A stretch of DNA of 64,000 bases from Betaproteobacteria bacterium Ga0077527 (lineage in GTDB: Bacteria > Pseudomonadota > Gammaproteobacteria > Burkholderiales > SG8-41), in NCBI GenBank assembly GCA_001464815.1, contig LNDW01000023.1, positions 15,529 to 79,528 on the forward strand, given 5' to 3'. The notes beneath the pieces are model-generated. The model saw only the letters and a list, made by a program, of their open reading frames with translations, had not been told where the DNA came from and did not search any database. Below are positions 1,670 to 47,849 of the stretch, piece by piece (position 1 is the stretch's first letter; every line of letters starts with the position of its first letter). The position numbers and the translations under genes were made by a program.

Positions 1670-3082
1670 ATGGGAAGCACTGCCGATGTCATGAAGTCGC
1701 TGAAGGACAACGAAGTCAAGTTCGTTGACCTGCGTTTCACCGATACCCGGGGCAAGGAACAGCATGTGTCCGTGCCGACCAAGATGTTCGGAGAGGACAA
1801 GTTCACCGATGGCCATGCCTTTGACGGCTCGTCGATTGCCGGCTGGAAGGGCATTCAGGCTTCGGACATGCTGCTGATGCCGGATCCGGACAGCGCGCGC
1901 ATGGATCCCTTCACCGACGAAGCGACCCTGATCCTGACCTGCGATGTGATCGAGCCTGCCGACGGCAAAGGCTACGACCGCGATCCGCGTTCGATCGCCA
2001 AGCGCGGAGAGGCCTATCTCAAGTCCACCGGCATCGGTGACACCGCTTATTTCGGCCCGGAACCCGAATTTTTCATTTTTGATTCGGTGGCCTGGAGCGT
2101 CGACATGTCGGGCTCGATGGTCAAGATCAAAAGCACGGAAGCACCGTGGTCTTCCGGTGAAGACATGGAAGGCGGCAACATGGGCCACCGTCCTGCGGTC
2201 AAGGGTGGCTATTTCCCCGTTCCGCCGGTGGATTCGCTGCAGGACATTCGTTCGGCGATGTGCCTGGCGCTCGAAGAGCAGGGCGTGCCGGTCGAAGTGC
2301 ATCACCACGAAGTCGCAACCGCCGGCCAATGCGAAATCGGCACCCTGTTCTCCAGCCTGGTGAAACGCGCCGACTGGAACCAGATCCTGAAATACACCGT
2401 GCACAACGTCGCGCATTCCTATGGCAAGACCGCGACCTTCATGCCGAAACCGATTGTCGGTGACAACGGTTCGGGCATGCACGTGCACCAGTCGCTGTGG
2501 AAGGGCGGCCAGAACCTGTTCAGCGGCAACGGCTACGCCGGCCTGTCCGAACTCGCGCTGTTTTACATCGGCGGCATCATCAAACATGCCAAGGCCCTGA
2601 ACGCGATCACCAATCCCGGAACCAACTCGTACAAGCGCCTGGTGCCCGGTTTCGAGGCCCCGATCAACCTCGCCTACTCCGCGAAAAACCGCTCGGCCTC
2701 GATTCGTATCCCGCATGTGGCCAATCCGAAGGCGCGCCGCATCGAAGTGCGCTTCCCGGATCCGACAGCGAACCCGTACCTGGCATTCACCGCGATGATG
2801 ATGGCCGGGCTCGACGGCATCCAGAACAAGATTCACCCCGGCGACGCCGTGGACAAGAATCTCTATGACTTGCCGCCGGAAGAAGCGAAAAAAGTGCCGA
2901 ATGTTTGCTCGTCGCTGGATCAGGCGCTGGAACACCTCGACAAGGATCGCGAGTTCCTGACCCGCGGTGGTGTCTTCTCCAACGACATGATTGATGCCTA
3001 CATCGACCTGAAGATGGAGGAAGTCACCGCCTTCCGCATGACCACGCACCCGCTGGAGTTCCAGCTCTACTACAGCCTTTGA
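1670..3082 (+). CDS. glnA: Glutamine synthetase type I
   Basis: 470-aa ORF, full-length GS-I similarity ([32 protein letters not shown], adenylylation-region NLYDLPPEE); good SD AGGAGA. Confidence 0.97.
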
Positions 3083-3264: not shown

Positions 3265-3789
3265 ATGCGGGTTTATCCGAGGCCGAAGATGCACTTGCCC
3301 CTGCCTTCCCAGTCCCAGTCTTGTTCAATGCTGCTGTTGTGCGCCCTGGCGCTGCCTGTCCACGCCGAAATCTGGGAATGCATCGACCGCGACGGCAACA
3401 AGCGGTTCACCAACGTCAAATCCGAGGCGGCGGGCTGCAAGCCGATGAATCTGCCGCCGGTGAGCACCGTGCCTGCGCCAAAGCCGGGTGCGGGCAAACC
3501 CGCGGCACCGGCGTCTGCCGCGAGCGGCGGCGATTTTCCCAAGGTCGACCCCTCGACCCAGCAGCAGCGCGACAGTGGCCGGCGCAAGATTCTCGAGCAG
3601 GAACTTTCCAACGAGGAACGGCTGCTCGAGCAGGCGCGTCGCGATCTGGCCGAACAGGAAGCCACCCGGCTGGGCAACGAGCGCAACTACCAGCGCGTGC
3701 TGGAGCGCCTCGAGCCGTTCAAGAAAAAAGTGGCCTTGCACGAGAACAACATCGCCAACCTGCGCAAGGAAATCGGCGCCCTGCGCTGA
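3265..3789 (+). CDS. DUF4124-domain secreted protein
   Basis: Signal peptide (MLLLCALALPVHA) followed by the IWECIDRDGNKRFTN motif typical of DUF4124, then a coiled-coil C-terminus. Start uncertain (ATGs at 3265, 3289, 3328). Confidence 0.7.
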   Translation: MRVYPRPKMHLPLPSQSQSCSMLLLCALALPVHAEIWECIDRDGNKRFTNVKSEAAGCKPMNLPPVSTVPAPKPGAGKPAAPASAASGGDFPKVDPSTQQQRDSGRRKILEQELSNEERLLEQARRDLAEQEATRLGNERNYQRVLERLEPFKKKVALHENNIANLRKEIGALR

Positions 3790-3859
3790 GTCTGCGTGCC
3801 GCGTCCCGCGGCACGCTTGGTGCTGGCCTGCATCTTGCTCATGGATGCGGAGTGCGTTG

Positions 3860-4954
3860 ATGAACGCCACCGCGACAGCAGGCCCGCTCGCCGGACTGGA
3901 TCAGTTGGCCACCGCGGTGGTTGTAATCGACGACGGGCAATCCGTCCTCTACATGAATCCTTCCGCCGAAAATCTGTTCGAGCTGTCGCAGTCCAGCGTG
4001 GCCGGCCTGACGCTGGAGCGTCTGCTCGGCGAGAACGCCGTGCTCGGCGCCGCGATCAACCAGTCGCGGGTCAATCATGCGGCCTACACTGAACATGAGC
4101 TGGAGATCACCGCCAACGGCCGCCAGCGGCTGAATCTGGCCTGCACGGTGTGCCCCGCCGAATTTCCCGGTCAGGGGCCGTCGATGCTGCTCGAATTCCG
4201 CCAGATCGACCGCCAATTGCGTGTCGAGCGTGAAGCGCGGCTGCTCGAGCAAAGCCAGGCCCACCGCGACCTGATCCGCAACCTCGCCCACGAAATCAAG
4301 AATCCGCTGGGCGGCATCCGCGGCGCGGCCCAACTGCTCGACCGCGAGCTGGAGCGTCCGGGGTTGCACGAATACACACAGGTCATCATCAAGGAGTCCG
4401 ACCGTCTGCAATCGCTGATGGACCGTCTGTTGACGCCGCACCGCCTGCCGCTGCCCGGGCCGGTGAACATCCACGAAGTACTGGAGCGCGTGCGCAGCGT
4501 GATGGTGGCCGAGTTCTCCGGCATCACGGTGCGCCGTGACTATGACACCAGCCTGCCGCTGCTCACCGGCGACCGCGAGCAGCTGATCCAGGTGGTGCTC
4601 AACATCGTACGCAACGCCGCGCAGGCAATCAAGGGTGCGGGGACGGCCCATGGCGAAATCCGGCTGCGCACACGGGTTGCGCGCCAGGTCACGCTGTCCC
4701 GCCGCCGCTACCGCCATGCCGTGCAGATCGACATCTGCGACAACGGCCCCGGTATCCCCGAAAACATGAAGGAGCGTGTGTTTCAGCCGCTGATTTCCGG
4801 CCGTGAAGGCGGCAGCGGCCTCGGCCTTACCATTGCGCATAACTTCATCACCCAGCACCGCGGCACGATCACCTTTGACAGCGCGCCCGGTAAAACCTGC
4901 TTTACGCTGCTGCTGCCGGTGCAGGACGACGCCCGGCCCGCCGCGCAGCATTGA
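3860..4954 (+). CDS. ntrB: Nitrogen regulation sensor histidine kinase NtrB
   Basis: PAS region, H-box NLAHEIKNPLGGIRGAAQLL and the HATPase N/G boxes. The start is trimmed to the ATG at 3860 (MNATATAGP) because the longer ORF from 3488 overlaps the previous gene. Confidence 0.9.
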   Translation: MNATATAGPLAGLDQLATAVVVIDDGQSVLYMNPSAENLFELSQSSVAGLTLERLLGENAVLGAAINQSRVNHAAYTEHELEITANGRQRLNLACTVCPAEFPGQGPSMLLEFRQIDRQLRVEREARLLEQSQAHRDLIRNLAHEIKNPLGGIRGAAQLLDRELERPGLHEYTQVIIKESDRLQSLMDRLLTPHRLPLPGPVNIHEVLERVRSVMVAEFSGITVRRDYDTSLPLLTGDREQLIQVVLNIVRNAAQAIKGAGTAHGEIRLRTRVARQVTLSRRRYRHAVQIDICDNGPGIPENMKERVFQPLISGREGGSGLGLTIAHNFITQHRGTITFDSAPGKTCFTLLLPVQDDARPAAQH

Positions 4955-4982: not shown

Positions 4983-6386
4983 ATGAAACCTGTCTGGATC
5001 ATCGACGATGATCGTTCCATCCGCTGGGTGTTCGAAAAGGCGCTGACGCGCGAGAACATCGCCTTCAAGGCATTTTCCTCGGCGCGCGAGGCGCTGACCG
5101 CACTCGACGACGAAGTGCCGCAGGTGGTGGTCAGCGACATTCGCATGCCCGGAGAGTCCGGGCTCGAGCTGCTGCAGCAGGCCAAGGCCAAACACCCTGC
5201 GCTGCCGGTGATCATCATGACCGCGTACTCCGACCTGGAAAGCGCGGTCACCGCATTCCAGGGCGGCGCCTATGAATATCTGCCCAAACCTTTTGATGTC
5301 GATCACGCGGTGGAGTTGATTCGCCGAGCGATGGATGAAAGCGTACGCCAGGATTCGACCGGTGAAGTGGTCGAATCGATGCCGGAAATGCTCGGCCAGG
5401 CGCCTGCGATGCAGGAGGTTTTTCGTGCCATCGGCCGCCTGTCACAGTCCCATGCCACGGTGATGATCACCGGTGAGTCGGGCAGCGGCAAGGAGTTGGT
5501 GGCGAGTGCGCTGCACCGCCACAGTCCGCGTGCCGGTCGTCCGTTCATTGCCATCAATACCGCGGCGATCCCGAAGGAATTGCTGGAATCCGAACTGTTC
5601 GGCCATGAGCGTGGTGCCTTCACCGGCGCGCAGAACATGCGCCGCGGCCGTTTCGAGCAGGCCGAGGGCGGCACGCTGTTCCTCGACGAGATCGGTGACA
5701 TGCCGCAGGAGCTGCAGACGCGGCTGTTGCGCGTGTTGTCCGACGGCCATTTCTACCGCGTCGGCGGCCACCAGCCGATCAAGGCCAATGTGCGCGTGAT
5801 TGCGGCCACCCACCAGGACCTTGAGGCAAGGGTCAAGCAGGGCCTGTTCCGTGAAGACCTGTTCCACCGCCTCAACGTGATCCGTCTGCGCCTGCCGCCC
5901 CTGCGAGAGCGGCGCGAGGACATTCCGCTGCTGGCGCGGCATTTCCTGCAGAAAAGCGCGCGTGACCTCGGCGTCGAGCCGAAGCGACTGTCGGAGGCGA
6001 CGCTGAATTACGTCGCGATGCAGGATCTGCCGGGCAACGTGCGCCAGCTCGAAAATCTCTGCCACTGGCTGACCGTGATGGCGCCGGCGGCGATGATCGA
6101 GGTCAAGGATCTGCCGCCGGAAATGCGCAGCGAAGCAGTGGTTGCCGGCACCGAAGACTGGGCTGCCGCGCTGGGCCGCGAAGCCGAGCTGCGCCTGCAT
6201 CGTGGCCAAACCGCGATCATGGACGAGTTGACCCAGCAGTTTGAACGTACGCTGATCCTGAAGGCGCTGGCGCAGACCGGAGGCCGGCGCATCGAGGCCG
6301 CGCAACTGCTGGGCCTGGGCCGCAATACGCTGACTCGAAAAATCCAGGAACTGAAACTCGAGCCGGGCCGCGGCGAGGAAGCGTGA
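4983..6386 (+). CDS. ntrC: Nitrogen regulation response regulator NtrC (sigma-54 activator)
   Basis: 467 aa: receiver domain, AAA+ domain with GESGSGKE and GAFTGA, and a C-terminal Fis-type HTH. Confidence 0.95.
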   Translation: MKPVWIIDDDRSIRWVFEKALTRENIAFKAFSSAREALTALDDEVPQVVVSDIRMPGESGLELLQQAKAKHPALPVIIMTAYSDLESAVTAFQGGAYEYLPKPFDVDHAVELIRRAMDESVRQDSTGEVVESMPEMLGQAPAMQEVFRAIGRLSQSHATVMITGESGSGKELVASALHRHSPRAGRPFIAINTAAIPKELLESELFGHERGAFTGAQNMRRGRFEQAEGGTLFLDEIGDMPQELQTRLLRVLSDGHFYRVGGHQPIKANVRVIAATHQDLEARVKQGLFREDLFHRLNVIRLRLPPLRERREDIPLLARHFLQKSARDLGVEPKRLSEATLNYVAMQDLPGNVRQLENLCHWLTVMAPAAMIEVKDLPPEMRSEAVVAGTEDWAAALGREAELRLHRGQTAIMDELTQQFERTLILKALAQTGGRRIEAAQLLGLGRNTLTRKIQELKLEPGRGEEA

Positions 6387-37396: not shown

Positions 37397-38146
37397 ATGA
37401 GCGATGCACTGCATGGCCAATGCGCACTGGTGACCGGTGCCGCGCGCCGCGTCGGTGCCGCGATCGTACGCCGGCTGCATGCCGCGGGCGCCAACGTCGT
37501 GGTGCATTGCCATCGTTCGCGCTCCGAGGCCGGAGCGCTGGCCTCGGAGCTGAATGCGATACGCGCGGCTTCGGCGGCGGTCGTGGTGGCCGACCTGCTC
37601 GATACTGCGGCGCTGCCGGATCTGGTGCGGCAGTCCCTTGCCGCCTTTGGACGTCTCGATCTGCTGGTCAACAATGCTTCCAGCTTTTACGCCACGCCAC
37701 TGGCCGATGTGGACGAAACGCAGTGGCAGGACCTGATCGGCAGCAATCTCAAGGCGCCGCTGTTTCTTGTGCGCGCCGCGGCACCGTCGCTGCGCGAGCA
37801 GGGCGGCGCGATTGTCAACATCATCGATATCCATTCCGAGCGGCCGATGCGTGATCACGTGATCTACAACGCCGCCAAGGGCGGGCTCGCCGCGCTGACT
37901 AGGGCGCTGGCGCTGGATCTGGGGCCGCGGGTGCGGGTCAACGGGGTTTCCCCCGGAGCCATCGTCTGGCCCGAGGCCGGGGCATGGGAAAATACCGTCG
38001 AGCGCGAGGCAATCATCCGTCGCACCATCCTTGGCCGCACCGGCGAACCGGAGGACATTGCCGGTGCGGTGCTGTATCTCGCCGGCGCGCCCTATGTCAC
38101 CGGACAGATCCTCGCCGTCGACGGCGGCCGCAGCATCGTGCTCTAG
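37397..38146 (+). CDS. Short-chain dehydrogenase, pteridine-reductase-like
   Basis: 249 aa with TGAARRVG and YxxxK motifs; layout resembles FolM/PTR1-type SDRs. Confidence 0.75.
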
Positions 38147-38165
38147 CCCAACACGGAAGCCATCC

Positions 38166-39035
38166 ATGGAAACCCAGGTCATCACCATCACCCCGCGCAG
38201 CAATCGCGAGCGCCGGGATCAGTATGAATCGCACAAGCTGGAGAAGCGGCTGCGCCGCCTCGCCGGCCAGGCCATCGCCGATTTCGACATGATCGGCGAT
38301 GGCGACAAGGTGATGGCCTGCCTGTCCGGCGGCAAGGACAGCTACGCGATGCTCGATATCCTGCTCCACCTGCGCAGCCGCGCGCCGGTGAATTTCGACA
38401 TCGTCGCCGTCAACCTCGACCAGAAGCAGCCGGGTTTCCCCGAGCATGTGCTGCCCGAATACCTGACGCAACTGGGTGTGCCGTTCCACATCGAAAATCA
38501 GGACACCTACAGCATCGTCAAGCGGGTGATTCCCGAGGGCAAGACCATGTGCTCGCTGTGTTCACGGCTGCGCCGCGGTGTGTTGTACCGCGTGGCGCAG
38601 GAACTCGGTGCGACACGGATCGCGCTGGGCCACCACCGCGACGACATCCTGCAGACTTTTTTTCTCAACCTGTTTTTCGGCGGCAAGCTGAAGACCATGC
38701 CGCCGAAGCTGGTTTCCGATGATGGCCGCAACGTGGTGATCCGCCCGCTCGCCTATTGCGAGGAGCGCGACCTTGAGGCCTATGCCGGACTGCGGCAGTT
38801 CCCGATCATTCCCTGCACGCTGTGCGGCTCTCAGGAAAACCTCAAGCGCAAGGAAGTAAAGGCCATGTTGAATGAATGGGAAAGACGTTTTCCGGGCCGC
38901 GTCGAATCCATGTTCACCAGCCTGCAGAATGTAATTCCATCGCATTTGCTGGACCGCCAGCTGGTCGACTTTGCGTCAATCCGCGCCACCGGCACACCCG
39001 TTCCCGATGGTGATACGGCGTTTGATGGTGATTGA
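38166..39035 (+). CDS. ttcA: tRNA 2-thiocytidine(32) synthetase TtcA
   Basis: PP-loop SGGKDS and CxxC pairs ([17 protein letters not shown]). Start trimmed to METQV at 38166. Confidence 0.92.
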
Positions 39036-39206
39036 CGTTTCAAGCTGAGACAAGTTCAGCACAGGCTTAGAAAAAACTGAGCTGGTTACCGGGAACCAAA
39101 TTCGCCGGCCTGCACTCTCAGTCCCGTTCTGCAGCGGGGGATGATCACCACGGTGATGATCTTTCCGCGGCAATCATCAATTCAATTCCTATGTCAGGGG
39201 CGGGCC

Positions 39207-40493
39207 GTGCGCAGCATGTTGTGGGCGACGTTGATCGTGTTGTGTCTGGCGGGACCGGCATTTGCCGCAGAAGCGCCGGCGAAACCGTCCGCCGTGCCGG
39301 TGCCTGTTGCGGCACCGGTGACGCGGGTGACACTGCCCCAGGCACTGGCCGCGGTGCAGACCCACAATCCCGAGCTTGCAGCTGCGGTCCAGCAGCGCGC
39401 CGTTGCCGCCGCCGAAACCCGCATCGCCGCGGCTTATCCGAATCCTGAGCTCAGTGTGTCCACCGGGCGCTGGCAACCGCGGGCGAACACGCCTCCGGCC
39501 GGCAGCACGCAGCAATTGACGGTGGCACAACCCGTCGAACTGCCGGCGGTACGCGAAGCGCGTGCCCGTGCCGCCGGTTTTGGTGTCAGCGCAGCCGACG
39601 CCAATGTCGAGTTGGTGCGCATCGATATCGGTTTTGATGCCCGCGCCGCTTTTTTCCAGTTGCTGCGCCGTCAGGAGGAGGCCCGGCTGGCGGCCGAGAA
39701 TCTGACGCTGCTCAATGACATCCTCGGGCGTGTGCGCAGCCGGGTTGATGCCGGCGAGGCGCCGCGCTTCGAACTGGTGCGCGCGGAGGCCGAGGTGCTG
39801 TCCGCACGTACTGCCGCCGATGCCGCGCGGCTGATGGTCGAAGAAGCACGCGGACTGCTGCGCCGTCTGGCCGGCAACGCGCTGCCGATGCAGTTCGAAG
39901 CCAGCGGTGTCTTGCCGCCCGCAGCCACGCTGCCCGATCTGGCGCTGGTGCAGGGGCGCATGCTTGATGCAAGCCCCCGCCTGCGTGTGCTCGCGGCGGA
40001 ATCAGACCGGCTGCGCGCGCGCCTCGACCAGGAACGCGCCCTGCGCCTGCCCCAGCCGGTGATCAGCCTGTCGCAGGCGCAGGACCCGGAGAATCGCCAA
40101 AGAATGCTCGGCATCAGCCTGCCCCTGCCGATGTGGAATCGCCGCGAGGGCCAGATTGCACAGGCCCAGGCCAGCATCGATCTCGCGCTGACGCAGATCG
40201 AGGCGCAGCGTGCGCAATTGCTGCGTGAACTGGATGCCGCCTATTCGCGGGCGAGCATCGTGCAGCGTCAGGTTGAAACTTATGAAAGCGGGCTGCTGAA
40301 AAGCGCCGAGGCCGCGCTGCGCGTGGCCGAAGCCGCATGGCGTTTCGGCGAGCGCAGTTTCCTCGAGGTGCTCGACGCCCAGCGCACGCTGCGTGGCGTG
40401 CGCCGCGACTACAACCAGGCGCGGTTTGACCGTTATGCCGCGTGGATCGACATCGAACGCCTGCAGGGCCAGGACCCGTTCAGTGAAAGGTAA
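39207..40493 (+). CDS. Outer-membrane efflux protein (CzcC/TolC family)
   Basis: Signal peptide MRSMLWATLIVLCLAGPAFA after a GTG start with AGGGG SD (alternative ATG at 39216); duplicated OEP repeat. Confidence 0.85.
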   Translation: MRSMLWATLIVLCLAGPAFAAEAPAKPSAVPVPVAAPVTRVTLPQALAAVQTHNPELAAAVQQRAVAAAETRIAAAYPNPELSVSTGRWQPRANTPPAGSTQQLTVAQPVELPAVREARARAAGFGVSAADANVELVRIDIGFDARAAFFQLLRRQEEARLAAENLTLLNDILGRVRSRVDAGEAPRFELVRAEAEVLSARTAADAARLMVEEARGLLRRLAGNALPMQFEASGVLPPAATLPDLALVQGRMLDASPRLRVLAAESDRLRARLDQERALRLPQPVISLSQAQDPENRQRMLGISLPLPMWNRREGQIAQAQASIDLALTQIEAQRAQLLRELDAAYSRASIVQRQVETYESGLLKSAEAALRVAEAAWRFGERSFLEVLDAQRTLRGVRRDYNQARFDRYAAWIDIERLQGQDPFSER

Positions 40494-40497
40494 AACG

Positions 40498-41634
40498 ATG
40501 AAGCACCTGACATTGCTGCTGGCGGCCCTGCTGTTGACCGCCTGTGGTGAAAAACCGCAACCCGCGCCGGCGAAAGCGGAACGCGATCCGCTGACAGTCA
40601 GCGCCGACGCCGAACTGGCGGGGCGCATCGAAATCGCCGCGCTCGGAGTGAGCGAGGTGCGCGAGCTGCTCCGGGTGCCGGGGCGTATCGAAGCCGACGA
40701 GAACCGCATGGCGCGTATCGGTGCCCCGGTCAACGGACGTATCACCGACCTGCAGGCCACCGTCGGCCAGGATGTGCGGCGCGGCGCCGTGCTGGCGACG
40801 ATCAACAGCACCGAGTTGTCATCCTCGCAGCTCGCCTTCCTGAAGGCGCAGTCGCAGCGTGAACTGGCGGCGCGCAGTGCGGCGCGGGCAAAGCAGTTGT
40901 TCGACGCCGATGTGATCGGCGCCGCCGAACTGCAGCGCCGGCAGAGTGAACTGGTCATGGCCGAGGCTGAACTCGGCGCCACGGCCGATCAACTGAAGGT
41001 GCTCGGCATGCCCGGTGCCGCGGTGAACCGGCTTGCCGAAACCCGCAGCATCAATTCGATCTCGCAGATCGTCGCCACCGTCAGCGGCACTGTGATCGAG
41101 CGCAAGGTCACCGAGGGCCAGGTGGTGCAGCCCGCCGATCCGGTGTTCCTGGTCGCCGACCTTGCGAATCTTTGGGTGGTGGCTGATATTCCGGAGCAGA
41201 ACGCGGGGTCGATTCGTGTTGGCGAGGAAGTGGCGGTGGAAACCGCGGCGCTGCCGGGTCGCACCGTCAACGGCCGGCTGACCTTTGTCAGCCCGGTGGT
41301 AAATCCGCAGACACGCACTGTGCAGGTCCGTCTCGACCTGCCCAACCCGAAGCGTGAATACAAACCCGACATGCTGGCGAGTGTGCTGATACAGGGTAAA
41401 CCCCAACAGCGGCAGACTGTGCCCAACGATGCGGTGGTGCGTGAGGAAAACCGTGATCATCTGTTCGTGCGCACCGGTGAAAACACCTTCCGCCTGCAGC
41501 AGGTTCAGCTCGGCATCGAGTACCAGGGCCGGCGTGTGGTCGAGAGCGGCCTGCGCGAGGGTGCGATGGTGGTGGTGAGCGGCGCCTTTCATCTCAACAA
41601 CGAACGCAAGCGCCAGGCGCTCGGAGCGCAATAA
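40498..41634 (+). CDS. RND efflux periplasmic adaptor (CzcB/CusB-like)
   Basis: Lipoprotein signal MKHLTLLLAALLLTACG; HlyD-type barrel-sandwich and beta-barrel regions. Confidence 0.88.
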   Translation: MKHLTLLLAALLLTACGEKPQPAPAKAERDPLTVSADAELAGRIEIAALGVSEVRELLRVPGRIEADENRMARIGAPVNGRITDLQATVGQDVRRGAVLATINSTELSSSQLAFLKAQSQRELAARSAARAKQLFDADVIGAAELQRRQSELVMAEAELGATADQLKVLGMPGAAVNRLAETRSINSISQIVATVSGTVIERKVTEGQVVQPADPVFLVADLANLWVVADIPEQNAGSIRVGEEVAVETAALPGRTVNGRLTFVSPVVNPQTRTVQVRLDLPNPKREYKPDMLASVLIQGKPQQRQTVPNDAVVREENRDHLFVRTGENTFRLQQVQLGIEYQGRRVVESGLREGAMVVVSGAFHLNNERKRQALGAQ

Positions 41635-41637
41635 GCC

Positions 41638-44600
41638 ATGGACGGATTGTTGCGTGCCGCCATCACCCAGCGGCTGATCGTTGTCGTGATCGCCGCGGTG
41701 CTGTTTGTGTTTGGCGTCAACGCCGCACGCAATCTTTCGGTCGACGCCTTCCCCGACGTCACCAATGTGCAGGTGCAGATCGCCTCCGAGGCGCCGGGCC
41801 GCTCGCCGGAGGAGGTTGAGCGCTTTGTCACGGTGCCGGTGGAGATCGCGATGACCGGCCTGCCGGGGCTGACCGAGATGCGCTCGCTGAACCGGCCCGG
41901 GCTGTCGCTGATCACGCTGGTGTTCACCGATGAAACCGACGTTTATTTCGCGCGCCAACTGGTGCTTGAACGGTTGATCGAAGCCGGAGGACGCCTGCCC
42001 GCCGGTGTGACGCCGGTGCTCGGCCCGGTATCGACCGCGCTGGGCGAGGTTTACCAGTACACGCTGGAGCGGCCGGATGACGGCCAGCGCGAGCTGACCA
42101 GGGAGGAGCTGATCGAGCGGCGCATCGCGCAGGACTGGGTGGTGCGCCCGCTGTTGCGTTCAATTTCCGGCGTGGCCGAGATCAATTCCACCGGCGGCTA
42201 CGTTCGTCAGTACCAGGCGCTGGTCGACCCCGACCGCCTGCGTTACTACAAGGTGACGATCCAGGACGTGTGGCAGGCTTTGGCGCGCAACAACGCCAAC
42301 GCCGGCGGCGGCATACTGCCGCAGGGACCCGAGCAGTTTCTGGTGCGTGGTGTCGGCCTGGTCAAGGACCTCGACGACATCCGCAACATCGTGTTGAAGG
42401 AAGTCGGCAACACGCCGGTGTTCATCCGCGATGTCGCCGAGGTGACTTTCGGCGAGGAGGTGCGCCACGGCGCGATGATCAAGGGCAGCCATACCGAGGC
42501 GGTCGGCGGCGTGGTGATGATGATCCGTGCCGGCAACGCCAAGGAGGTGGTGTCGCGGATCAAGACCAGGGTCGAGGAGATCAACAGCAAGGGCATGCTG
42601 CCCGGCGGGCTGCAGATCGTGCCCTACTATGACCGCTCCGAACTGGTTGATGCTGCGCTGTGGACGGTGACCAAGGTGCTGCTTGAGGGCGTGCTGTTCG
42701 TGGTCATTGTGCTGTTCCTGTTCCTGGGTGATCTGCGCTCCAGCGTGATCGTGGTGGCAACGCTGCTGATCACGCCGCTGGCCACCTTCATGGTGATGAA
42801 TCACTACGGCCTGTCGGCCAACCTGATGTCGCTTGGCGGGCTGGCCATCGCCATCGGCCTGATGGTGGACGGCTCGGTGGTTGTGGTCGAGAACACCTAC
42901 GCCCGGCTCGGTCATGCCGACCCCAGGGAGCGCCTGCGCACCGTGCTGCTGGCGGTGAAGGAAGTGGCGACCCCGGTGATTTTCGGCATCGGCGTGATCA
43001 TCCTGGTGTTCCTGCCGCTGATGACTCTGGAGGGCATGGAGGGCAAGATGTTCGCGCCGCTCGCCTATACCATCGCCATCGCGCTGTTCATCTCGCTGGT
43101 GCTGTCGCTGACGCTGACCCCTGCGCTGTGTTCGTACATGCTCAAGGGCGGCGCCGAGCATGACACCTGGTTCATAGCGAAGATCAAGGCGCCCTATGTG
43201 CGCGGCCTTCACTGGGCGCTAGGCAACGAGCGCAAGACCATACTCGGCACCCTGGCTGCCCTGGCTGGCGCATTGCTGCTGCTGCCCTTTCTCGGCACCG
43301 CCTTCATCCCGGAGATGAGGGAGGGTTCAATTTCACCGGCGATTGATCGCGTGCCGAACATTTCACTTGAAGAGTCGATCAAGATGGAACGCGAGGCGAT
43401 GCGCCGGGTGCTCGAGGTGCCGGGAGTGCAGATGGCCGTGTCACGCATCGGCCGCGGCGAGTCCGCCGCCGATCCCGCCGGCCCCAACGAAGCTGATCCC
43501 ATTGTCACGCTGAAGCCCCGCGACCAGTGGCCCGAGGGCTGGACCCAGGACAACATCGCCGCGGCGATCCGCGACAAGCTGAAGACCATACCCGGTGTGC
43601 AACTGGTGATGGCGCAGCCGATTTCAGACCGCGTCGATGAAATGGTGACCGGCGTGCGCTCCGATGTCGCGGTCAAGCTGTTCGGCGACGACCTCGACCA
43701 GCTGCGGCTGACGGCGAACGAGATCGCGGCGGTGGCCGCCACCGTACGCGGCGTGCGTGATATGCGCGTCGAGCGCACCGGTGGCCAGCAGTACTTGACC
43801 CTCACCATCGACCGCAAGGCAATAGCGCGGCAGGGGCTCAATGTCTCCGATGTACAGGATGTGATTGAAATGGCGATCGGCGGCAAGGTCGCCACCGAGA
43901 TTTACGAGGGCGAGCGCCGCTTCCAGGCGGTGGTGCGCCTGCCCCAGCAATTCCGCAACGACCTCAACGATATCCGTTCGCTGATGCTGACCGCCCCCAA
44001 CGGAGCGCAGATCGCGCTGGAAAGCCTGACGAAGATCGAGGTCACCGAAGGCCCGTCGCAGATCAGCCGCGAAATGGGAAAACGCCGCATCGTGGTCGGC
44101 ATCAACGTGCAGGACCGTGACCTTGGCGGTTTTGTCGCCGAGCTGCAGCAGGCGGTGGACGGCCGCGTCAAGCTGCCTGAGGGTTATTACCTGGAGTGGG
44201 GCGGGCAATTTCAGAATCTCGAGCGCGCGCTGGGCCATCTGCTGGTGATCATCCCGGTGACCATTGCTGCGATCTTTTTCCTGCTGTTCCTGCTCTTCAA
44301 CTCGCTCAGGTTCGCTGCGCTGATCATCACCGTGCTGCCTTTCGCCTCGATCGGCGGCATCATCGGTCTCGCGGTGTCCGGCGAGTTCCTGTCGGTTCCG
44401 GCCTCGGTTGGATTCATCGCGCTGTGGGGCATTGCGACATTGAACGGCGTGGTGCTGGTGACCTATATCCGCAAGCTGCGCGACGAGGGCATGGCTGTCG
44501 CCGATGCGGTGCGCGAGGGCGCCCTCGCCCGGTTCAGGCCGGTGATGATGACGGCGACGGTGGCGATGCTGGGTCTGATCCCCTTCCTGTTTTCCACCGG

Positions 44601-44730
44601 CCCCGGTTCCGAAGTGCAGCGGCCGCTGGCGATCGTGGTGATCGGCGGTCTGATCACCTGTACGGTGCTGACGTTGATCGTGGTGCCGGTGCTGTATCGC
44701 TTCTTCGAAGAGGAGAGGGTTGAGGCATGA
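41638..44730 (+). CDS. Heavy-metal-efflux RND permease (CusA/CzcA family)
   Basis: 1030 aa, 12-TM RND architecture. The TM4 motif AIAIGLMVDGSVVVVEN is of HME type, closer to the CusA pattern AIAVGAMVDAAIVMIEN as I recall it. Confidence 0.9.
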   Translation: MDGLLRAAITQRLIVVVIAAVLFVFGVNAARNLSVDAFPDVTNVQVQIASEAPGRSPEEVERFVTVPVEIAMTGLPGLTEMRSLNRPGLSLITLVFTDETDVYFARQLVLERLIEAGGRLPAGVTPVLGPVSTALGEVYQYTLERPDDGQRELTREELIERRIAQDWVVRPLLRSISGVAEINSTGGYVRQYQALVDPDRLRYYKVTIQDVWQALARNNANAGGGILPQGPEQFLVRGVGLVKDLDDIRNIVLKEVGNTPVFIRDVAEVTFGEEVRHGAMIKGSHTEAVGGVVMMIRAGNAKEVVSRIKTRVEEINSKGMLPGGLQIVPYYDRSELVDAALWTVTKVLLEGVLFVVIVLFLFLGDLRSSVIVVATLLITPLATFMVMNHYGLSANLMSLGGLAIAIGLMVDGSVVVVENTYARLGHADPRERLRTVLLAVKEVATPVIFGIGVIILVFLPLMTLEGMEGKMFAPLAYTIAIALFISLVLSLTLTPALCSYMLKGGAEHDTWFIAKIKAPYVRGLHWALGNERKTILGTLAALAGALLLLPFLGTAFIPEMREGSISPAIDRVPNISLEESIKMEREAMRRVLEVPGVQMAVSRIGRGESAADPAGPNEADPIVTLKPRDQWPEGWTQDNIAAAIRDKLKTIPGVQLVMAQPISDRVDEMVTGVRSDVAVKLFGDDLDQLRLTANEIAAVAATVRGVRDMRVERTGGQQYLTLTIDRKAIARQGLNVSDVQDVIEMAIGGKVATEIYEGERRFQAVVRLPQQFRNDLNDIRSLMLTAPNGAQIALESLTKIEVTEGPSQISREMGKRRIVVGINVQDRDLGGFVAELQQAVDGRVKLPEGYYLEWGGQFQNLERALGHLLVIIPVTIAAIFFLLFLLFNSLRFAALIITVLPFASIGGIIGLAVSGEFLSVPASVGFIALWGIATLNGVVLVTYIRKLRDEGMAVADAVREGALARFRPVMMTATVAMLGLIPFLFSTGPGSEVQRPLAIVVIGGLITCTVLTLIVVPVLYRFFEEERVEA

Positions 44731-45062
44731 AAGAGATCAAGGCGGTGATCCAGCCGTCACGGCTGGAGGTTCTGCGTCAGGCATTCCGCAAAATCCCCGA
44801 CTTTCCGGGCATGACCGTGTCACGCGCGCAGGGTTCGGGTTACCACCCTGACAAGCTGCAGCGGCCGGGCATCCGCGCCGAGTTGACCGATTATTCCGAA
44901 AAGGTGCGGATCGAGATCATCGCCCGCGACGAGGAGTTGTCGGGTCTGCTGGAGATCATCCACAAGGCCTGCCACACCGGCCGCCCTGGCGATGGCGTAC
45001 TGTGGGTGACTGAAGTGGCGGAGTTCAGGCGCATGCGCGTCGTCCCCGGCGAGGCCGCCTGA
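44727..45062 (+). CDS. PII-like signal protein coupled to the RND pump
   Basis: 111 aa, collinear with GlnB (MKEIKAVIQP..., B-loop TGRPGDGVLW) but with a divergent T-loop lacking the YRGAEY uridylylation context. Its ATG overlaps the czcA-like stop (ATGA). Confidence 0.8.
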   Translation: MKEIKAVIQPSRLEVLRQAFRKIPDFPGMTVSRAQGSGYHPDKLQRPGIRAELTDYSEKVRIEIIARDEELSGLLEIIHKACHTGRPGDGVLWVTEVAEFRRMRVVPGEAA

Positions 45063-45089
45063 TTTCAATCGCGCGGGGTTTGCGCCGGT

Positions 45090-46067
45090 TCAGAAATCAG
45101 GCTTGATGTTGTATTCCTTGACCGCCTTGCTCCAGCGCACGATTTCGGCGCGCATGAATTTGTCGAACTCTGCCGGCGTGGTGGGCACCGGATCGTAACC
45201 GCGTTCGCGCAGCAGCTTGCCGGTTTCGCCCTTGAGCACGGTGGTCACCGCCTTGTTCAGGGTGGCCACGGCCTCCTTCGGCATTTTCACCGGACCCATC
45301 AGGCCGTACCAGCCCGAAATCGCGAAGCCCTTGTAGCCCGATTCGGCCAGCGTCGGCACGTCGGGCAATTGCGCGGCGCGGGCATTGGTGGTCACCGCCA
45401 GCGCGCGCAGCTTGCCGGCCTTGATCTGCGGGATCGCCGCGCCTGGGCCGGAGAACAGCGTCTGCACTTCGCCGCCGACTGCTGCCGCGACCGAGGGGCC
45501 CGAGCCGCGGTAGGGGATGTGTGTCAGCTTGACCTTTGCGGTCTGGAAAAATGCCTCCTGCGCGATGTGTGCGGTGACGTTGCCGGAGCCGAAGTTCATC
45601 GAATTCGGTTTGGCCAGCGCGAGCTTGATGAAATCGGCCAGCGTCTTCACCGGTACGCTCGGGTGCACGGTCATGATGTACGGCTGTTCAATCGTCTGGC
45701 TGATCCCGGCAAAGTCCTTGGACACGTCAAAGGGCAGCTTGGGGATCAGCGCCGGCGCCACCGCGGTGGCGCCGATTTCTGCGACGACAATGGTATAGCC
45801 GTCAGGGTTGGCGTCGGCGGCGATCGCGGTGCCGAGGGTGCCTTGGGCGCCGCCGCGGTTGTCGATCAGGATTTGCTGGCCGAGTTCGGCGGACAGCGCC
45901 GGCTGCATGATGCGCGACACCAAGTCAGTGCCGCCGCCGGGCGGGAAGGGCACCACCAGGCGGATCGGTTTGTTCGGATAGCCGGCGGTCTGGGCAAATG
46001 CCGGCGCGCTCAGCGCAAGGCAGGCGGTTATGGGGAACAGTGCGGGCAACAGTGCGAGACGGCTCAT
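45090..46067 (-). CDS. Bug-family tripartite tricarboxylate transporter substrate-binding protein
   Basis: 325 aa with a signal peptide and the YPNKPIRLVVPFPPGGGTD motif. Confidence 0.9.
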   Translation of the reverse strand: MSRLALLPALFPITACLALSAPAFAQTAGYPNKPIRLVVPFPPGGGTDLVSRIMQPALSAELGQQILIDNRGGAQGTLGTAIAADANPDGYTIVVAEIGATAVAPALIPKLPFDVSKDFAGISQTIEQPYIMTVHPSVPVKTLADFIKLALAKPNSMNFGSGNVTAHIAQEAFFQTAKVKLTHIPYRGSGPSVAAAVGGEVQTLFSGPGAAIPQIKAGKLRALAVTTNARAAQLPDVPTLAESGYKGFAISGWYGLMGPVKMPKEAVATLNKAVTTVLKGETGKLLRERGYDPVPTTPAEFDKFMRAEIVRWSKAVKEYNIKPDF

Positions 46068-46325: not shown

Positions 46326-46595
46326 ATGAACTGCGCAACACGCCTTGTGGAAATCTTCGGCAGCCAGGCCGAAGTGGCGCGCCGTTTCCGGCTAGACCGC
46401 GCGGTGGTCAACCACTGGGTGAAGTCCGGTTATGTGCCGGCACGCTGGGCGATGGAAGTCGAACAGGTCACCGGCGGAGAAGTCGCAGCCGTCGAAGTGC
46501 TTAATGAAGCCACCTCGCGCAAGCCGCTGAAGCTGAAGTCGCGGCCCGACGGGGAGAATTTTTTTGCCAATGCCCAACCCGGGAGTGAATACACC
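46326..46595 (+). other. In-frame upstream coding segment with a YdaS/Cro-like HTH
   Basis: FGSQAEVARRFRLDRAVVNHWVKSGYVPARWAMEVEQVTGGEV is collinear with E. coli YdaS (GGQSAMARLLGVSPPSVNQWIKG..PAERCPAIERATRGEV). There is no stop codon before the aminotransferase and no obvious SD at 46326. Confidence 0.5.
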
Positions 46596-47849
46596 ATGGA
46601 CAAATACGCACCGAGCAAACGCATCAGTTCCTTCCACCCGCCGCAGCGTACGCTGATGGGCCCCGGACCGACGGAAATTCATCCGCGCGTGCTGACCACA
46701 ATGAGCCAGCCGGCGATCGGCTACCTCGATCCCGTCTTCGTCGAGATGATGGAAGAGCTGAAAGCCCTGCTGCGCTACACCTACCAGACCAGGAATCCGC
46801 TGACCTTCCCGGTCTCCGGTCCCGGCTCGGTGGGCATGGAATACTGTTTCGTCAACATGGTCGCGCCTGGTGACAAGGTCATCGTCTGCCGCAACGGGGT
46901 GTTCGGCGGCCGCATGATCGAGAACGTCGAGCGTGCCGGCGGTGTGCCGGTGGTGGTCGAGCACGAGTGGGGCGAGCCTGTCGATCCGCAGAAACTCGAG
47001 GACGCGCTGAAAAAGAATCCCGATGTGCGCGTGGTCGCCTTTGTCCACGCCGAGACCTCGACTGGTGTGTTGTCGGATGCCAAGACCCTGGTCGAGATCG
47101 CGCACAAGTATGACGCGCTGACCATCGTTGATGCCGTCACCTCGCTCGGCGGCTCCCCGGTGCTGGTCGATGAATGGAAAATCGATGCCGCTTACTCGGC
47201 CAGCCAGAAATGCCTGTCGTGCACTCCGGGCCTGTCGCCGGTGACCTTCTCCGAGCGTGTGGTTGACAGAGTCGCGGCACGCAAGGACAAGATCCACTCC
47301 TGGTTCATGGACATGAACCTGTTGCGCGGCTATTGGGGCGAGACCACCCGCACCTATCACCACACCGCGCCGACCAACTCGCTGTTCGCGCTGCACGAAG
47401 CGCTGCTGCTGATCCGCGAGGAAGGCCTGGAGAACGCCTGGGCGCGCGTCACCCGCCACCACACCGCGCTGAAGGCCGGCCTCGAAGCAATGGGCCTGAA
47501 GTTCCTGGTCAAGGAACCGTACCAGATTCCGCAGATGAACGCGGTGCGCTGCCCCGAGGGTGTCAACGAAGCCGAAGTGCGCAAGACGCTGCTCAACGAA
47601 TTCGGCCTCGAGATCGGCGCCGGCCTGGGCCCCCTCGCCGGCAAGATCTGGCGCTTCGGCCTGATGGGCTACTCCTGCCGGCCCGACAACGTGATGCTCT
47701 GCCTGTCGGCGCTGGGTTCGGTGCTCGAAGACATGGGTTACCCGGTGCACGTTGGTGATGCCGAAGGTGCCGCACACGCCGCCTACGCCTCGATGCACGC
47801 CAAGGCTGCGCAGGCAAAGAAAAAAACCGCTCCCGCCAAAGCCGCATAA
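46596..47849 (+). CDS. Class-V aminotransferase (serine-glyoxylate / alanine-glyoxylate type)
   Basis: 417 aa from MDKYAPSKR (GGGAG 10 nt upstream). AGT-family similarity throughout (LMGPGPTE, SQKCL PLP-lysine region) plus a Lys/Ala-rich C-terminal tail. Confidence 0.85.
   Translation: MDKYAPSKRISSFHPPQRTLMGPGPTEIHPRVLTTMSQPAIGYLDPVFVEMMEELKALLRYTYQTRNPLTFPVSGPGSVGMEYCFVNMVAPGDKVIVCRNGVFGGRMIENVERAGGVPVVVEHEWGEPVDPQKLEDALKKNPDVRVVAFVHAETSTGVLSDAKTLVEIAHKYDALTIVDAVTSLGGSPVLVDEWKIDAAYSASQKCLSCTPGLSPVTFSERVVDRVAARKDKIHSWFMDMNLLRGYWGETTRTYHHTAPTNSLFALHEALLLIREEGLENAWARVTRHHTALKAGLEAMGLKFLVKEPYQIPQMNAVRCPEGVNEAEVRKTLLNEFGLEIGAGLGPLAGKIWRFGLMGYSCRPDNVMLCLSALGSVLEDMGYPVHVGDAEGAAHAAYASMHAKAAQAKKKTAPAKAA

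Follow-up and report, generated by a model that had tools for sequence, protein, structure and literature searches.

Few signal integrators of prokaryotes are as widespread as PII proteins, and pumps of the resistance-nodulation-cell division (RND) type are central to metal and drug tolerance. What does a PII protein do when its gene is built into the operon of such a pump? The question is raised by a stretch of 64,000 nucleotides (the window) from Betaproteobacteria bacterium Ga0077527 (contig LNDW01000023.1, positions 15,529 to 79,528), in which a PII gene of 111 codons plus TGA (44727..45062, plus strand) closes an operon of the czcC-czcB-czcA type. We are highly confident that this gene encodes a genuine cytoplasmic PII protein (the window PII) of the lineage known as PII-NG, and that it is the co-translated last cistron of an operon for divalent-metal RND efflux. 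By analogy with the pairs GlnK-AmtB and SbtB-SbtA, the protein may control its cognate pump in a ligand-dependent manner through direct binding, a reading to which we assign a probability of roughly 40%.

The open reading frame is judged to be a true gene and not a chance frame because of its profile score, its base composition, its homologues and its predicted fold. It matches the Pfam P-II family (PF00543) with E = 7e-15 and 55.6 bits against a cut-off of 25, the alignment being near full length (residues 1-104 aligned to positions 1-99 of the 102 in the profile), and its third-position GC content of 0.81 is similar to that of the adjoining genes. Forty PII sequences in the Protein Data Bank match it at E <= 0.01, headed by GlnK1 of M. 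jannaschii (1.5e-15). A word-indexed search returned 430 homologues at E <= 1e-3, and an exhaustive search of 1.84 billion representatives returned 1487 at the same threshold, only 69 of them at E <= 1e-10. Single-sequence AlphaFold2 prediction was poor, with a predicted local distance difference test (pLDDT) score of 61.6, and a model based on a 121-row alignment (pLDDT 89.9) was used instead. It has the double beta-alpha-beta ferredoxin-like fold, with strands at residues 2-8, 30-36, 57-66 and 90-96 and helices at 10-21 and 68-82; the T-loop (residues 37-56) is less confident than the rest. When the model was submitted to Foldseek, the top matches were all PII, GlnK or GlnZ structures (TM 0.75-0.79). 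Profile and fold thus agree with the first-pass annotation, which had read a 111-aa protein of PII fold from the sequence.

The PII gene is tightly joined to the pump gene. Its start codon (ATG at 44727) and the TGA of the 1030-aa RND permease gene czcA (41638..44730, plus strand) overlap in an ATGA junction with three bases shared, and the intergenic distances along czcC, czcB, czcA and PII are 4, 3 and -4 nt, which bears out the overlap and the fourth place in a czcCBA-type operon that had been proposed earlier. Linkage was surveyed in one genome per species at 80 loci, whose PII proteins are 44-87% identical to the window PII. In 80 of 80, PII is immediately preceded by a czcA orthologue in the same orientation, the order czcC-czcB-czcA-PII recurs wherever the contig reaches that far, and the gap between czcA and PII is -4 to 112 nt where both frames could be delimited, the exception being one locus with an interrupted czcA. 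The megaplasmids of Ralstonia carry the order TolC-adaptor-RND-PII with an identical 4-nt overlap; there, the PII homologue is annotated as a 'P-II family nitrogen regulator' or a 'transcriptional regulator'. A further sample consisted of 300 genomes of the class, evenly drawn, in which the scoring of RND candidates was limited to the best two of each genome. PII orthologues above 80 bits occur in just four of them (G031, G178, G243 and G247), and these four, and no others, also have RND orthologues at 65-70% identity, each with a copy adjoining PII. Conservation of the linkage, on which the first-pass annotation had made its case depend, is therefore seen at every surveyed locus, in all four sampled genomes and on the Ralstonia megaplasmids.

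The interrupted gene belongs to Methylobacillus glycogenes JCM 2850 (L052:4886-8000), where the czcA frame stops after 560 codons, homology runs on to the normal end and the PII gene is intact downstream; this is either a frameshift or stop of the draft sequence or a pseudogene. At four Methylophilaceae loci (L031, L037, L040 and L048), a tblastn search placed a second CzcA-like gene shortly downstream of PII, so that PII sits between two RND permease genes.

A divergent group of PII proteins associated with metal pumps, to which the first-pass annotation referred, does exist. The PII-NG or PII-New group was defined by Sant'Anna et al. (2009, J Mol Evol 68:322, as cited in PMC7726332, PMC11617674 and PMC4316997) and occurs mostly in Proteobacteria, its genes being linked to pumps for heavy-metal efflux (PMC11617674, 2024). 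Its members were called 'uncharacterized' in 2014, with 'effector binding properties ... currently not known' (PMC4316997); neither the 2014 nor the 2024 paper citing the group names a ligand or target, and full-text literature searches found no newer experimental work on it. In Geobacter sulfurreducens, the PII-NG gene GSU2134 is the Co(II)-induced, Fur-regulated first gene of a czc operon, and intracellular Co(II) sensing was proposed for it by analogy with CutA1 (PMC7726332, 2020). The window PII shows both defining traits, being divergent and linked to czc-type efflux genes, and it is on these traits, rather than on direct alignment to a named member, that its assignment rests. GSU2134 is the first gene of its operon, whereas the window PII is the last and overlaps czcA. 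The kind has therefore been known, and known to be linked to such pumps, since 2009, and the window gene is a further member. What the window adds is detail: a distinct, conserved subfamily of pump, motifs that are the PII clade's own, and six PII-superfamily genes in one genome, including a second one linked to an RND pump.

How far the window PII stands from the nitrogen regulators GlnB and GlnK was judged from scores, signatures and a tree. It is 30-37% identical to GlnB and GlnK and scores 46.1 and 46.2 bits with the NCBIfam equivalogs for these proteins, whose cut-offs are 202 and 181. Two PROSITE-type signatures of canonical PII were applied with the genome's own GlnB and GlnK as positive controls, and both controls matched. 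The uridylylation pattern of the T-loop, Y-[KR]-G-[AS]-[AE]-Y, is found in the window PII no more than in any of the 226 clade rows, and the B-loop signature [ST]-x3-G-[DY]-G-[KR]-[IV]-[FW]-[LIVM] is likewise matched by 0 of 226, the window PII having Val91 at the Lys/Arg position. A quick IQ-TREE analysis of 115 sequences and 113 columns, with SbtB-like copies as outgroup and with neither NifI nor a named PII-NG reference, placed the window PII in a starred 14-row clade with a Shimodaira-Hasegawa-like branch support (SH-aLRT) of 97, nested in a 43-row clade (SH-aLRT 89). The two canonical copies of the genome fall into a separate starred GlnB/K clade (SH-aLRT 98), and the clustering inside GlnB/GlnK that would have spoken for an ordinary nitrogen PII is not seen. 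The phylogenetic separation is supported but not definitive, because the deep branches of the tree are unresolved and it holds no NifI or named PII-NG reference. Gene linkage is also of another kind: glnA lies about 38 kb away, nadE and amtB are on other contigs (C16 and C22), and there is no Sbt_1 gene near the PII frame, whose neighbours are czcA and tctC.

The residue pattern of the clade is distinctive. Patterns resembling E52-L-T-D-Y-S-x-K59 at the end of the T-loop and G-D-G-x-x-W93 in the B-loop are shared by about 200 of the 226 clade rows, as against one or two of 73 tree-set rows for other PII proteins; further clade motifs are M-K-E-I-K-A-V-I-x-P, F-P-G-M and H-T-G-x-x-G-D-G, and Trp93 is invariant. 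The T-loop and B-loop strings quoted in the first-pass annotation are residues 36-59 and 84-93. As it had claimed, the YRGAEY context of uridylylation is missing, the position of canonical Tyr51 being Glu52, which is 96% conserved as Glu in the clade. Its view that the B-loop is retained holds for the G-D-G backbone but not for Lys90, which is replaced by Val91 (I, V or L across the clade). Canonical Arg38-Gln39 has become Tyr39-His40, and canonical Arg103 is kept as Arg104, which is Arg in only 27% of relatives. Gly27-Met-Thr, Lys58 (here Lys59), the G-D-G of the B-loop and Arg101 (here Arg102) are retained. In PII structures, residues of the Arg38, Gln39, Lys90 and Arg103 type hold the gamma-phosphate of ATP, Mg2+ and 2-oxoglutarate (2-OG), and those kept in the window PII line the adenine and ribose pocket. 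From the residues lost and kept, we infer a protein that no longer senses 2-OG and that may still bind adenine nucleotides in some altered way.

Six genes of the PII superfamily are present in the genome: two are canonical, two Sbt-linked and two RND-linked. The canonical copies lie in the arrangements nadE-glnB (contig C16) and glnK-amtB (contig C22), so the nitrogen PII circuitry is indeed a separate system, as had been supposed. Each of two SbtB-like genes, at L010:9752-10084 (contig C21, plus strand) and L011:10132-10656 (contig C20, minus strand), stands beside a gene for an Sbt_1 (PF05982) transporter. The second RND-linked copy, on contig C5 (C5:13645-13986 of G000, equal to L009:9646-9987, minus strand), encodes 113 aa, scores 68.6 bits with PF00543 and is 37% identical to the window PII. 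Its gene is flanked by those of the adaptor and the RND permease in a different operon of czc type, in which the pump has the usual motif DFG-DGA-VEN, and a CusRS-like two-component pair is found about 5.5 kb away. The protein has H-T-G-R-P-G-D-G in common with the window PII, has a GlnB-like C-terminus and falls into a different small group of the tree. When it was used to search the 300 genomes, mostly canonical GlnB/K proteins were returned, along with one close relative, 58% identical and encoded directly before czcA (genome G015).

The partner of the window PII is a CusA/CzcA-family heavy-metal permease (TIGR00914, 1119.5 bits against a cut-off of 701.45; PF00873, 954.7 bits), and it belongs to a distinct, highly conserved subfamily. 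Across the 80 loci, czcA orthologues are 65-95% identical, and mean column identity is 80% for the pump versus 58% for PII. The subfamily has its own motif in the fourth transmembrane segment (TM4), SLGG-x-AIA-x-G-x2-V-D-G-x-VVVVEN. In the proton-relay region of the window pump (residues 398-419) this reads SLGG-LAIAIG-LMV-DGS-VVV-VEN, combining a CusA-like two-residue insertion with a D-G of the ZneA/Czc kind; the other heavy-metal efflux pumps of the genome have the usual DFG-x3-DGA-x3-VEN. The solved structures nearest to the permease are ZneA (718 bits) and then CusA (632 bits). Of the site residues of CusA, Met573 and Met623 are aligned with Ala and Glu of the window pump, and of those of ZneA, Glu136, Asp602, Asp654 and Asp658 are aligned with Glu137, Asp612, Asp664 and Glu668. 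Because the acidic ligands of ZneA are aligned and the CusA methionines replaced, we infer a divalent cation as substrate. This would be compatible with the Co(II) induction of the Geobacter PII-NG operon (PMC7726332). With the ZneCAB and CzcCBA systems of Cupriavidus metallidurans the operon shares its three-part make-up of outer-membrane factor, adaptor and RND permease as well as the aligned ZneA acidic residues; it differs in the TM4 sequence AIG-x3-DGS-x3-VEN, in the conserved acidic tail at the C-terminus of the pump and in the obligatory presence of a PII gene.

The tail deserves separate mention. The cytoplasmic C-terminus of the pump carries an acidic stretch followed by an invariant Glu-Ala, and it does so also where the pump and PII genes are 30-110 nt apart, so that overlap with the ribosome-binding site of the PII gene is not the cause of its conservation. 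An orphan copy of the pump in G178 (L119:5175-8315, minus strand), 68% identical and with no adaptor, channel or PII genes nearby, has a tail unlike the otherwise invariant one. The conserved C-terminus is put forward as a lead to a possible docking site and nothing beyond that.

If PII and pump do act together, the protein, presumably a trimer as in the rest of its family, would take up a small ligand in its inter-subunit clefts. Depending on that ligand, it would dock with its T-loop face onto its own RND permease, also a trimer, from the cytoplasmic side and tune pump activity post-translationally, as GlnK acts on AmtB and SbtB on SbtA. The signal would not be nitrogen, given that Tyr51 has become a conserved Glu and Arg38, Gln39 and Lys90 are replaced, with the adenine pocket and Lys58 remaining; the ligand is probably an adenine nucleotide read without 2-OG, possibly with metal bound alongside it by clade-specific Cys and His residues. 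Direct regulation of the pump is ranked first because of the one-to-one co-occurrence, the translational coupling, the three-fold symmetry expected of both partners, the conserved end of the T-loop and the precedent of PII-transporter pairs. Coupling also favours matched synthesis of PII and pump. A more specific form of the idea, which we consider doubtful, is that the PII trimer sits on the three-fold axis of the cytoplasmic face of CzcA as a plug or allosteric brake, perhaps gripping the acidic tail, so that proton-driven metal export would be switched on or off by energy charge, cytoplasmic metal or both.

Regulation of a trimeric transporter by a PII-type protein is established for GlnK and AmtB, and a PII gene next to a transporter gene is found three more times in this genome, in glnK-amtB and the two pairs of SbtB-like and Sbt_1 genes. 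With GlnK-AmtB the window system shares a PII gene that adjoins, and is co-transcribed with, the gene of a trimeric transporter, along with the fold, a T-loop of similar length, Lys58 and the G-D-G of the B-loop. It differs in having Glu for Tyr51, in lacking Arg38, Gln39 and Lys90, and in the loss of Arg103 from most of the clade. Moreover, the partner of GlnK is an ammonium channel, whereas that of the window PII would be an RND antiporter with which contact is presumed. SbtB-SbtA, also cited as a case of PII-type transporter regulation (PMC10710835), offers a further parallel, SbtB being a non-nitrogen PII-type protein that is dedicated to one neighbouring transporter and reads adenine nucleotides without 2-OG; it belongs to another branch of the PII tree, where it served as outgroup, and its transporter partner is different.

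Several considerations weigh against direct control of the pump by PII binding. RND permeases expose less cytoplasmic surface than AmtB or SbtA. Contact between a PII-NG protein and an RND pump is shown by no experiment or model; a complex prediction for CzcA residues 330-1030 with a PII monomer, from paired alignments of 34 rows, scored 0.02 against a mark of 0.32 and is taken as neutral. The PII gene is found between czcB and czcA in the second RND-linked copy of the genome, and the PII-NG gene is first in its operon in Geobacter (PMC7726332), a variety of position with which any operon-associated role would fit, so that docking is not singled out. As to the conserved C-terminus of the pump, it amounts to one correlation, set against one contrasting copy. 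With the phosphate-binding residues largely lost, it is uncertain whether the protein binds nucleotides at all, and the wider clade that holds the window PII is only moderately supported (SH-aLRT 85-89 on 113 columns).

Other functions have to be set beside this one. The protein might be a cytoplasmic sensor or buffer of metal, in the manner of CutA, whose trimer would bind the cation of the pump in the former nucleotide cleft through Cys and His residues and either report the metal load or pass metal on to the pump. We regard this as rather unlikely, although several features of the clade speak for it. His40 at the base of the T-loop (81% conserved) and His83 just before the B-loop (85%) replace canonical Gln39 and Gln82, exactly one Cys is found at position 37 or 82 in 196 of 213 clade members, and the Geobacter operon that holds GSU2134 is induced by Co(II), with Co(II) sensing proposed for its product (PMC7726332). 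Against it, the histidines are not kept in distant clade members, such as the Azonexus and Dechloromonas types with Gln83. The window PII combines Ser37 with Cys82 where most other members have Cys37 with Gly or Ala at 82, and a tree-aware test of independent pairs found a single supported pair and hence had no statistical power; the switch amounts phylogenetically to essentially one event, and the complementarity of the two cysteines is a mere hint. CutA1 and the DUF3240 family (PF11582) resemble the window PII in belonging to the GlnB-like clan, in their small trimeric ferredoxin-like fold and in a proposed link to metal. Unlike them, the window PII is a true member of PF00543: it scores 14.5 bits with DUF3240, below the cut-off of 21, and Pfam reports no CutA family for it. 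DUF3240 is also matched by 13-40% of members in the nearest ESM Atlas clusters, and no match to it was found in the genome itself, in a scan in which control genomes gave no response either.

Less likely still is a target in trans, in which PII-NG would be made together with the pump and act on a transcription factor, a kinase or a metabolic enzyme, so tying metal stress to gene expression or metabolism. Canonical PII proteins control many unlinked targets, among them NtrB, ATase, NAGK, PipX and UmpH (PMC11617674), and with no regulator gene near the operon some trans-acting control is needed; some depositors, moreover, call the Ralstonia homologue a transcriptional regulator, which is a label only. 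Yet no other gene is conserved beside PII across lineages, and one-to-one co-occurrence with a single pump subfamily is easier to explain by a local partner. There is, finally, the proposal that the gene is an ordinary GlnB/GlnK paralogue of nitrogen regulation that adjoins the pump by chance. Beyond the shared Pfam family, fold and modest identity, little invites it. Both signatures and Tyr51 are missing, the scores are far under the equivalog cut-offs, the protein lies outside the GlnB/K clade, the genome already has its nadE-glnB and glnK-amtB arrangements, and the pump linkage holds at every one of the 80 loci, which makes this proposal most improbable and essentially excludes a nitrogen PII.

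The rest of the operon conforms to the czc type. The outer-membrane factor gene czcC (39141..40493, plus strand, 450 aa; PF02321 OEP, 142.8 bits) has homologues in the equivalent position of related loci wherever the contig extends far enough. It is followed by the gene for a czcB-like periplasmic adaptor of 378 aa with a lipoprotein-type start (40498..41634, plus strand; PF16576 HlyD_D23, 208.7 bits; TIGR01730, 161.5 bits against a cut-off of 94.9). The czcB gene most likely starts at ATG 40498, 4 nt past the czcC stop, and not at the longest-frame start at 40393, because the former yields the lipoprotein signal peptide MKHLTLLLAALLLTAC with the lipobox LLTAC. Upstream of czcC lies a leader of 105 nt (39036..39140, plus strand), presumed to hold the operon promoter and preceded by a PP-loop ATPase gene (38031-39035); an SDR gene, too, is found on the upstream side. 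A consensus scan for promoters and terminators over 38.0-46.3 kb gave nothing above shuffled expectation and no sigma-70-like site in the leader, where no Fur or Zur box was recognisable by eye. At the other end, tctC is convergent to the PII gene, its stop lying 27 nt beyond the PII stop, and the spacer between the two stops is spanned by a hairpin (45057..45102; RNA fold -27.3 kcal/mol, z = -2.0 against shuffles). The hairpin has no U-tract and was not called by the terminator scan; it is a possible, weakly evidenced bidirectional terminator. The data sets listed as carrying the sequence are metagenomic DNA, from drinking water and activated carbon, with no RNA set among them.

Among the genes scanned (about 28.4-50.5 kb of the window), none is of the two-component, MerR, ArsR or Fur type, in line with the earlier remark that no metal-sensing regulator lies nearby, and no regulator is common across lineages in the flanks of the 80 loci, where genes beside PII other than those of the pump operon are conserved only within sub-lineages. 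The sole DNA-binding-type domain close to the operon is a Cro/YdaS-type helix-turn-helix fused in frame to a class-V aminotransferase (46326-47849, plus strand), two genes downstream and with no evident link to it. The canonical nitrogen genes glnA (1670-3082), ntrB (3488-4954) and ntrC (4983-6386) do share the window, as had been pointed out, without positional relation to the czc-PII operon. Small open reading frames that match no Pfam family lie just 5' of the channel gene of this operon type in two lineages, one of 170 aa in Ralstonia (L118:1661-2173, plus strand) and one of 119 aa in the Methylophilaceae (L060:1982-2341, plus strand); the 119-aa type recurs in 18 loci and has no counterpart in the window.

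Taken together, the gene itself would not surprise a specialist, and the point of interest is its tight pairing with a distinct pump subfamily. The functional link between PII and RND pumps has been a standing question since PII-NG was described in 2009, one which this locus sharpens and does not answer. The PII gene is obligately tied to a single, highly conserved subfamily of pump, which has a TM4 motif and a tail of its own. The clade of the PII protein no longer has the residues of nitrogen sensing and keeps a T-loop end that is distinct and conserved. As the same four-gene unit is present in cultivable hosts, such as Methylophilus, Methylobacillus and Ralstonia, the function of PII-NG is directly testable. 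Direct control of the pump, if true, would add a new layer to the regulation of efflux. Should PII in fact act as a plug or brake, it would be the first PII-family post-translational regulator of any RND pump, and the logic by which PII proteins are paired with trimeric transporters would extend past nitrogen and carbon.

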